From: Thermodesulfobacteriota bacterium
Lineage (GTDB): Bacteria > Desulfobacterota_D > UBA1144 > Nemesobacterales > Mycalebacteriaceae
Assembly (NCBI GenBank): GCA_965198945.1
Contig: CBDAQI010000013.1
Location: 191,160 to 255,159 of the forward strand
DNA length: 64,000 nucleotides
Reading direction: 5' to 3'
Shown: positions 54,001-57,000 of the stretch, in pieces
Layout: each line of letters starts with the position of its first letter
Position numbering within the stretch: position 1 is the stretch's first letter
Program-made: the position numbers

Positions 54001-57000
54001 CCGTCACAAAACGGCTTGTCTGACGAAGCGCCGCATCTGCAGAGGGCGACTTTGTCTCCACAATCAATTTTTCTGCCCGAAGAATCAAAAATTTCGTAAA
54101 CTCCAGACATTATCATCGGACCGTCTTTGAGAATCTGTAATGTTGATTTTTTGTTCATGCCGGCAATTTTATCACAGAAAAGCCGTCTCGTCATTCTCAA
54201 TAAAAACGGGGACGGAAACATTTTGAGTTGAAAAAAGAAAAACCGTGTCATACCTTCCCCGGATGGAACGCGGGGAATATGATATATTCTAACCCATCAA
54301 TGATAATTTCCCCCTCAATACTTGCGGCTGATTTTACAAAACTTGGCGAACAGGTCCGGAAGACCGCCGAAGCCGGTGCGGATTGGGTACATGTGGATGT
54401 TATGGACGGTTGTTTTGTTCCGAACATCAGCATAGGCGTTCCGGTTGTGAAATCACTTTCAAAAATTGACTGCCCGCCAATGGATATTCATCTGATGGTT
54501 AAAAATCCCGAAAAAATTATCGGGGCGTTTGCAAAAGCGGGCGGCGGCGGGACAAACAACATCACGGTTCAAGCTGAAGCCTGCAAAGATGTTTCATCCG
54601 TGCTTGCGCATATCCGCTCTTTCGGAGTTATGGCGGGAGTGGCTCTCAACCCGTCAACACCGCTGTCTCTGATTGAAAGTATTTTGCCGCAAACCGACAT
54701 TGTGGTTGTTATGTCGGTTGATCCGGGGTTTTCAGGACAGAGTTTTATGGAATCGTCTCTTGAGAAAATTGCAACTCTGCGGAAAATGCTCGGACCTCCG
54801 GGCGCTGGAGTTCCACTGCTTGAAGTGGACGGGGGTGTGGATTTTGAAAAAGCAAAGGCGGTTCTCAAAGCGGGTGCTGACGTAATCGTAAGCGGTTCGG
54901 GCATATTCGGACAACAAGACATAGGGGAAGCGGTCAGAAAAATTAAAGGAATTGAAATTTAACGGCGGATACCGTGCGGTGAATGACATTTACACAAAAG
55001 AGATCAAAAACTATTTCCGCTCTCTTTCAGGAGGAGCGCTGATAATCTCGTCAGAAGACGAACACACACTGCTGAAATGGAAAAAAGAAGGGATTTCCAA
55101 GCAGGATGTGCTTGTTGGAATAAAAAAAGCTTTTCAAAACAACAACGGGAAAAGACTGACTATTTCGGGATGCGGAGATTTTGTTGAGAGGCGTTTCCGC
55201 AAATTACATAGGGCGGATGGGAAAAAGCCCGGTTCTCAGAACAAAAGTGATGCTGAAGCACACTCAATCGCTCTGAGGGTCTTTCGCAATATCTCATCCG
55301 CAATGGAAAACACTGATGATGCCAATATAAAAAAATGCCTTGAAAAAGCCGGTGGGATTTTCTTAAATGACGCGCCCGGTTCAAAGAACATCGGTGATTC
55401 TATTGGCAAAATACGCAGACAGACATGCGCGGAACTGCTTGATCTCCTGCCCGTGGAAGGCGCGGAAAATATTAAAAAGCGGGCGGAGCAAACCGTTTCA
55501 TCCTCGGGAAGGACTTTTATAAATGAGGAAGAAAGAAAAAAAGCGCTTGAAACTTTCATTGACAAGCTGATTATAAAAGAAGCGGGGCTTGAAGGAGTAT
55601 TTGATATTTGAAGCTCTCAAAGGCCAGACTATCTCATATTTTCATACACCCGATTCAGACTAAAGGCCGCGAATGATTAAAAAAGATTTTATAAGGCAGG
55701 AAATAGCAAAAGATGTATCCGAAGGCGGTCGGGTTGCCACACGCTTTCCCCCCGAACCCAACGGCTATCTGCACATTGGACACGCGAAATCAATCTGTCT
55801 TAACTTTCTCGCGGCCATGGAGAACTCCGGAACCTGCAGTCTGCGGTTTGATGATACAAACCCCAGAAAAGAGAAAAAAGACTTTACCGAAGCGATTAAG
55901 ACCGATGTGAAATGGCTTGGTTTTGACTGGGAAAAAGACGGCCTGCGCTTCGCATCCGACCATTTTGACACACTGTTTGAATTTGCCCGTTTTCTTACGG
56001 CAAGAAATGAAGCGTTTGTGGACGACCTCAGCGCCCAACAAATAAGGGAATATCGCGGCACCCTTACACAGGCGGGGATACACAGCCCGTTCAGAAACAG
56101 AAGCGGGGAAGAAAGTCTCAAATTGCTTGAAGGAATGAAAAAAGGCGAATTCGCCGAAGGTGAGAAAGTCCTGCGGGCAAAAATTGACATGTCTTCGGGC
56201 AATATAAACATGCGTGACCCGGTCATATACCGCATAATCAAAATCCCTCACCATAAAACCGGCGAAAAATGGAAAATCTACCCCACATATGACTTTGCCC
56301 ACCCGGTTTCAGACGCAATTGAAAATATAACGCACTCGCTATGCACGCTTGAGTTTGAAGACCACAGACCCCTCTATGACTGGTTTGTTAAACGTTACTG
56401 TGAGTTTGCAAACGGGTCTCAAAAACAAAGACCGCGCCAGATTGAGTTTTCGCGCCTGGAACTGAGCCATACGGTTATGAGCAAAAGGAGACTGTCAGAA
56501 CTTGTGAAAACGGGCGCGGTAAAGGGATGGGACGACCCGCGAATGCCTACAATATCCGGGATGCGGAGGCGCGGTTATCCGGCGGAGGCAATAAAAATTT
56601 TTTGTGACCGGGTGGGAATTACAAAACAAAAAAGTGTAATTGAGGTAAAACTGCTTGAGCATACGGTCAGGGAATACATGAATAAAACCGCTCCGAGAAG
56701 AATGGCGGTTCTCAATCCGTTAAAAATCATCATTACCAACTATCCTGAAAATAAGGAAGAGATTGTCTCCGCCGTCAACAACCCCGAAGATGAAAACGCC
56801 GGGGAAAGACCCGTAATTTTTTCAAGAACTCTTTTTATAGAGAGAGAGGATTTTATGGAAAATCCCACGAAAAAATTCCACCGTCTTTTTCCGGGCGCCG
56901 AAGTGCGGCTCAGATACGGATACTTTGTCACCTGTAAAGAGTTCAGAAAAAATGACAAGGGCGAAATCACTTTTCTGCTTTGCGAATATGACCCCGAAAC

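Follow-up and report, generated by a model that had tools for sequence, protein, structure and literature searches.

What is the function of gene X (g01436), an unannotated gene whose usual neighbour in the window's order encodes a DnaC/DnaI-like helicase loader? PriA is widespread, and most work on its partners concerns E. coli (PriB and DnaT) and Bacillus (DnaD, DnaB, and DnaI). To our knowledge, the link from PriA to the helicase is largely open in other phyla. The initial annotation of the window, by which we mean the whole 64,000-nucleotide stretch of DNA analysed here, had read X as a DnaD-type co-loader that forms a Firmicutes-like two-part loading system with the AAA+ loader. Our results partly support that reading and redirect it towards PriA-dependent restart of replication. 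The features of the locus are collected in Table 1.

Table 1. Features of the gene X locus, in window coordinates
Feature	Position	Strand	Basis or description
DnaC/DnaI-like helicase loader, 241 aa, cysteine-rich N-part and AAA+ domain	52608..53333	-	PF01695, E 2.3e-10
Inverted block prx-CDGSH-rpe-X, parting X from the loader	53387..55611	.	blastn against L002-L004 and contig bridging
AhpC/TSA redoxin gene (prx), within the inversion	53387..53935	-	Pfam scan
CDGSH iron-binding protein gene, within the inversion	53964..54161	-	Pfam scan
rpe, ribulose-phosphate 3-epimerase	54300..54962	+	PF00834, E 5.6e-69
Gene X ORF, longest form	54952..55611	+	219 aa from TTG; the TTG start overlaps the rpe stop
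Gene X, likelier form	54979..55611	+	210 aa from GTG; predicted all-helical, two parts; pLDDT 88.5, pTM 0.59
X N-domain, residues 1-84	54979..55230	+	Four predicted helices; homology to Bacillales phage initiator C-terminal domain by profile comparison; DnaD-like
X C-terminal helical part, residues about 89-210	55243..55611	+	Without specific relative in fold searches

Gene X is a real gene. The 219-aa reading frame reported earlier is present, and the GTG is its likelier start, because the resulting protein has the same length as that of G003 and as database entry P0017. X is single-copy and set among housekeeping genes, with folC-like, rpe, and glnS-type neighbours, in a genome that contains one X, one loader, DnaA, DnaB, and priA. 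General searches with the protein gave little: a Pfam scan of the window's X returned zero matches, Foldseek with the full model found nothing in the PDB at E up to 0.001, and profile searches of PDB sequences yielded generic helical proteins only. An atlas search with X returned three clusters of unnamed families at 0.94, the recognition value lying under the tool's mark, and one with the N-domain gave no usable named match. The C-terminal part matched generic helical bundles alone (best Z 8.0). A frame break divides X in two assemblies, L006 (G005) and L020 (G008).

The loader is the next gene 3' of X in 28 of the 30 fetched loci of the window's order. Adjacency had been claimed for all 30; the exceptions are the window itself and a locus ended by the contig end. 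In the window the loader gene is on the other strand, its start 1.6 kb away from X, and the rearrangement proposed to account for this separation proved to be an inversion, since blastn showed the prx-CDGSH-rpe-X block to be reversed relative to the genus relatives G001, G002, and G004. The gene usually found upstream of X is rpe, which takes the same place before the loader in loci that have lost X. The entire stretch is spanned by contigs from one sample, and the left junction also by a contig from a second sample; an assembly artefact is thereby ruled out, at least for the left junction. Examination of the inversion ends for repeats revealed none that were convincing. Elsewhere in the window (46638-50092), three long ORFs (379, 342, and 333 aa) are by eye unlike any housekeeping gene; there is an overlap of 4 bases between the last two, which together resemble a subtilase-type protein in two frames.

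The ancestry of the N-domain was revealed by profile comparisons. PHROG 7498, annotated as 'DnaD-like helicase loader', was matched by 28/28 members from the order and 27/27 distant members, counted at E up to 0.1, with a best value of 5.8e-15. The window's own X reached E 0.0039 in a search where the best member scored 2.9e-11. Alignment of the X family with the C-terminal domain of Jimmer gp77 by hhalign gave a probability of 98.7 over 84 columns. An X-only N-domain profile, built from 265 of 269 sequences and containing no phage rows, gave four Bacillales phage initiators E values from 2.6e-19 to 1.7e-8; in three of these four, a DnaC gene follows the initiator gene. These comparisons show the N-domain of X to be a homologue of the C-terminal domain found in phage initiators of the PHROG 7498/16826 type, and the shared domain together with the gene order suggests a phage origin. 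The N-terminal, origin-binding HTH part of such initiators is absent from X, and its neighbourhood is of housekeeping and not prophage character. The viral contigs held one short X-relative, located at a contig end where the downstream gene was not visible. On viral contig L153 (2995-3540), a stand-alone 181-aa protein carries the X N-domain first and a different C-part, possibly a phage intermediate form.

The link from X to DnaD proper is weak by the same kind of comparison. A true DnaB_2 domain scored E 0.022 with the X-only profile; with about 12,900 own-genome ORFs as decoys, the best unrelated one reached 0.21. PF07261 (DnaB_2) gave weak matches to X in 2/28 members (best E 0.0031) and in 2/71 of a second set (best 0.008), while TIGR01446 matched 2/65 members at noise level (best E 0.0018). 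The statement that DnaB_2 was the commonest weak match of the family was not reproduced on this set, where HAAS was commoner (4/28 members). When DnaB_2 was run over 101 Acidobacteriota genomes, none of its 12 matches fell on X, and the Pfam DnaB_2 domain was absent from the four closest phage domains. The fold search again matched the N-domain to the DnaD structures 2i5u (Z 7.2, rmsd 2.2, 66 of 77) and 2zc2 (Z 6.4), and again placed AAA+ lids level with them (Z 7.7 and 7.4); the top viral fold match was a 'replication initiation and membrane attachment' protein at E 0.067. An AAA+ lid was dropped as the identity of the domain, as lids match by fold alone and the sequence points to phage initiators. 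Because DnaB_2 matches are absent on acidobacterial X and on the closest phage domains, the term 'DnaD-like' stands on the PHROG annotation, a weak profile match, and a fold tied with AAA+ lids.

DnaD and DnaB are defined, in the accessible text of PMC2978336, by the DDBH1 winged-helix oligomerisation domain and the YxxxIxxxW motif. The motif is not kept in X: Tyr occurs in 52% of 265 rows, Val stands five places on, and Trp is not fixed; the window's X has Gly at the Tyr position. DDBH1 is absent, since the X model is strandless and all-helical and the DnaD-like domain begins at residue 1. X is therefore a DnaD-like phage-initiator tail with a C-part of its own, and not a DnaD. Of the initial domain assignment, the DnaD-like, replication-type character is upheld by PHROG 7498 and the phage initiator homology, and the Firmicutes-like DnaD is not supported.

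The distribution of X was then compared with those of the loader, PriA, and DciA. X occurred in all 41 relatives of the window's order and, when sought by profile, in 98/101 order genomes, in agreement with its reported core status. A confinement to the order proved too narrow a view: at E up to 0.001 the family comprises 1,838 representatives, and its named relatives include Acidobacteriota, Bradymonadaceae, and Thermodesulfobacteriota. The sister order was represented by 19 genomes of about 1 Mb each, 77-94% complete. X was found in 0/19 of them and the loader in 16/19, lying directly after rpe, without X, in 6/6 loci. PriA was found in 0/19 as well, in comparison with 40/41 genomes of the window's order and 5/5 Acidobacteriota tested. 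In five sister-order genomes a PriA protein query gave weak partial matches only, in frames that were taken by size as RecG and Mfd, and a broad profile, run on five such genomes with no positive control, returned nothing at E 0.5. DciA was detected in none of the genomes of the window's phylum, namely 0/41 and 0/19 in a search whose controls rang in 7 of 14, and 0/120 with another profile, run without a positive control. The sister-order material (L031-L036, G102-G119) thus yielded none of PriA, DciA, and X. Since the sister order keeps the loader without X, X is dispensable for loading there. That X and PriA are missing together is suggestive but carries no statistical weight, because it is a single event in streamlined genomes of ~1 Mb with many losses. 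The priA gene of the window genome has a frame break at about codon 232 (G000:C10 near 136960; L177 near 2060-2070), with X intact; priA is intact in G001 and G003 and is a short frame in G005.

To the sample from the phylum of Telmatobacter bradus, an even set of 101 Acidobacteriota genomes with a completeness filter of 90, X proved to be universal (101/101), so that X is a core gene in two bacterial phyla. The loader, mostly single-copy, was found in 87/101 by single-protein search and in 7 more by profile (94/101 strong), with 3 degenerate copies in addition; G159 gave a weak match like those of the degenerate copies, and neither search found a loader in G149, G175, and G178. DciA was present in 72/101, 68 of them over the cut-off. 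X, a single-copy loader, and DciA occurred together in 65/101 genomes, 61 with DciA over the cut-off; the tally includes the unpublished genomes G147 and G172, and is 63/99 without them. In a clade represented by L140-L142 (G223, G187, G211) and L144-L146, the loader is strongly diverged, with the Walker A Lys replaced by Arg; X of G223, G187, and G211 is also diverged, DciA is kept, and so is PriA where tested.

This coexistence runs against a published rule by which dciA and dna[CI] are mutually exclusive, a relation that its authors call striking (PMC5109545, as far as its accessible text goes). In the accessible table of the same paper, all four Acidobacteria have at least one PF01695 gene and three have dciA, nine Myxococcales rows show a PF01695 gene together with dciA, and the seven listed domestication events include neither Acidobacteriota nor the window's phylum. 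The available part of Tominaga 2024 (PMC11087808) reports both in 22 Vibrionaceae, with dnaC ascribed to prophages.

As the sister order keeps its loader but lacks both X and PriA, X looks like a DnaT-like restart adaptor and not like an obligate origin co-loader, contrary to the two-part loader initially proposed. We consider it unlikely that X is nevertheless a general co-loader comparable to Bacillus DnaD/DnaB, required alongside the loader both at the origin and in restart. The operon of X and loader in nearly all loci of the order and the failure to find DciA in the window's phylum would fit such a role, and DnaD, DnaB, and DnaI are described as working at origin and restart alike in the accessible text of PMC2978336. 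A predicted complex of X and loader from G038 also leans this way, as it does towards the restart role, with a score of 0.45 against 0.00 for the best of 3 controls, a value in a range more often wrong than right unless the pair is likely beforehand. The mark for a complex was reached by 116/157 solved and 2/215 mismatched pairs, with 18/157 and both mismatches at 0.60 or below. The runs agreed in at least 51% of contacts with partner pLDDT of at least 73, and the model hints weakly that X may bind the loader. Against a general co-loader stand the sister-order loci, where the loader follows rpe without X and DciA was not found, the lack in X of the winged-helix domain that oligomerises DnaD, and the retention of DciA in most Acidobacteriota.

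Another possibility is that X is a loader-independent DNA-binding or scaffold protein of replication or repair, whose partners might be PriA and DciA, or else DnaA, and that adjacency to the loader is a relic of its origin. X stood beside the loader in 0/80 Acidobacteriota-type loci (flanks up to 3 kb, some shorter). A metagenome scan for Bradymonadia-type X gave 2 loci with little downstream DNA in which the loader was not seen; it was likewise not beside X in the one long locus, with 5 kb upstream. X also persists in two lineages where the loader sheds ATPase residues. These observations would suit such a protein, but the loader is present in at least 97/101 X-bearing Acidobacteriota, at least 17 of the 87 genomes with a single-protein loader match have X and loader on the same contig at a distance of 9-20 kb, and the two diverge together in one acidobacterial clade, which makes independence from the loader quite unlikely. 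The acidobacterial loader of L147 (G162) and L148 (G213) is located some 10 kb from X, just 3' of what we take to be dnaK-type chaperone genes.

PF01695 matches the window's loader over its cut-off and the NCBIfam DnaC/DnaI models match it under theirs, and 8-9 cysteines fall within the first 75 residues in 5/5 genus members. In the genus, the Walker B DE is changed to DG and the sensor I Asn is replaced in 6/6 members (window, L002-L006), sensor II is absent in 5/5 complete loaders, and the Walker A lysine is lost in one. By contrast, Walker B, sensor I, arginine finger, and sensor II are intact in 21/21 other members of the order. The genus thus appears to possess a natural ATPase-degenerate loader, in genomes without detected DciA. 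According to the available text of PMC8213410, loss of any such residue abolishes the ATPase of E. coli DnaC, and DnaC's helicase-binding domain on its own loads DnaB at about half efficiency. For the latter reason, a genus loader that is ATPase-dead and still working is plausible.

The loader is resident in the window's phylum, being single-copy and in rpe context in both orders. A quick tree, which separates neither single from multiple origins nor phage-to-cell from cell-to-phage transfer, united the loaders of the window's phylum in one clade (support 95) and did not join those of Acidobacteriota with them, their clade being unsettled. Phage loaders were distant from the window-type loader (best phage E 2e-19). 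It is very improbable that X has no role in replication and that the acidobacterial DnaC-like ATPase does another job, in which case coexistence with DciA would be no exception: the noise-level direct matches to DnaB_2 and TIGR01446, the metabolic look of acidobacterial X neighbours, which we take to be nadC, birA, coaX, an RNA methyltransferase gene, and comEC, and the separation of the loaders in the tree would agree with it, whereas the strong homology to phage initiator tails, the fact that searches of the window's phylum gave the DnaC-like ATPase as the sole loader candidate, and the retention, for the most part, of Walker, sensor, and arginine-finger residues in acidobacterial loaders argue against it.

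We return to X as a resident helicase-loading accessory that would act like E. coli DnaT in PriA-dependent restart, the likeliest of these roles, for which we judge the case evenly balanced and whose biochemical steps we infer. X would have descended from, or would share a domain with, the tail of a phage initiator once located 5' of a DnaC-like loader. PriA would bind the stalled fork, X would bind single-stranded DNA through its DnaD-like N-domain, and X would then recruit the DnaC-like loader, which would reload the DnaB helicase. For the window's phylum, in which searches did not find DciA, we think it probable that the loader works at the origin as well and would manage there in the absence of X. 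For Acidobacteriota, the origin may be the task of DciA, and restart that of X with the loader. More tentatively, PriA, X, and a resident DnaC-like loader might constitute an undescribed third restart system that belongs to the core of Acidobacteriota and of the window's order and also occurs in other delta-type lineages. Acidobacterial cells would have it next to DciA, as two unrelated loaders divided between origin and restart, and such a state could be the intermediate that permitted later loss of dciA in the window's phylum and of the loader ATPase in the window's genus.

If true, X fills a gap in how these bacteria restart replication. As a candidate from a phylum that is major in soil and has members in culture, it makes the question of the link between PriA and helicase testable. 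Phylum-wide DciA alongside a resident DnaC-like gene is an exception to the mutual-exclusion rule as worded in the accessible text of PMC5109545, and natural loaders without ATPase residues test the need for ATP turnover in cellular loading. In the literature covered, mostly open-access and in part only, on acidobacterial DnaD, primosome, and helicase loader and on DciA with DnaC, the X system is not described; an earlier description is possible, and the supplement of 10.1101/2022.01.24.477630 may list acidobacterial loaders.

The proposed system resembles, in different respects, several known ones. In E. coli, dnaT and dnaC form one operon and DnaT has been proposed to recruit DnaB/DnaC (PMC13377028, in its accessible part); as with X, a small non-ATPase gene shares an operon with a DnaC-type loader. 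In the PriA/PriB/DnaT restart described in the same part of that paper, DnaT links PriA to DnaB/DnaC, and X is co-absent with PriA. Unlike this arrangement, Pfam scans of X members gave no DnaT match, and in Acidobacteriota X and the loader lie apart and DciA is kept. Bacillus DnaD/DnaB with DnaI offers a DnaD-like four-helix domain and a partner loader with a cysteine-rich N-part; in X, however, the domain is N-terminal, the helical C-part is unrelated, and one gene stands instead of two. The initiator and DnaC modules of phages (Brevibacillus phage Jimmer gp77-gp78, phiOH2, and PK5.2) have both domain subfamily and gene order in common with X, whereas the phage initiators carry an N-terminal DNA-binding domain (Phage_rep_O or HTH) and X does not. 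Domesticated dna[CI], in the accessible text of Brezellec 2016 (PMC5109545), is a phage-type loader resident where DciA is not found; this would apply to the window's phylum and not to Acidobacteriota, where DciA was found in 72/101 genomes. Finally, vdhL with OG4911, in the available part of Tominaga 2024 (PMC11087808), has an initiator-like gene, OG4911, upstream, just as X lies 5' of its loader.
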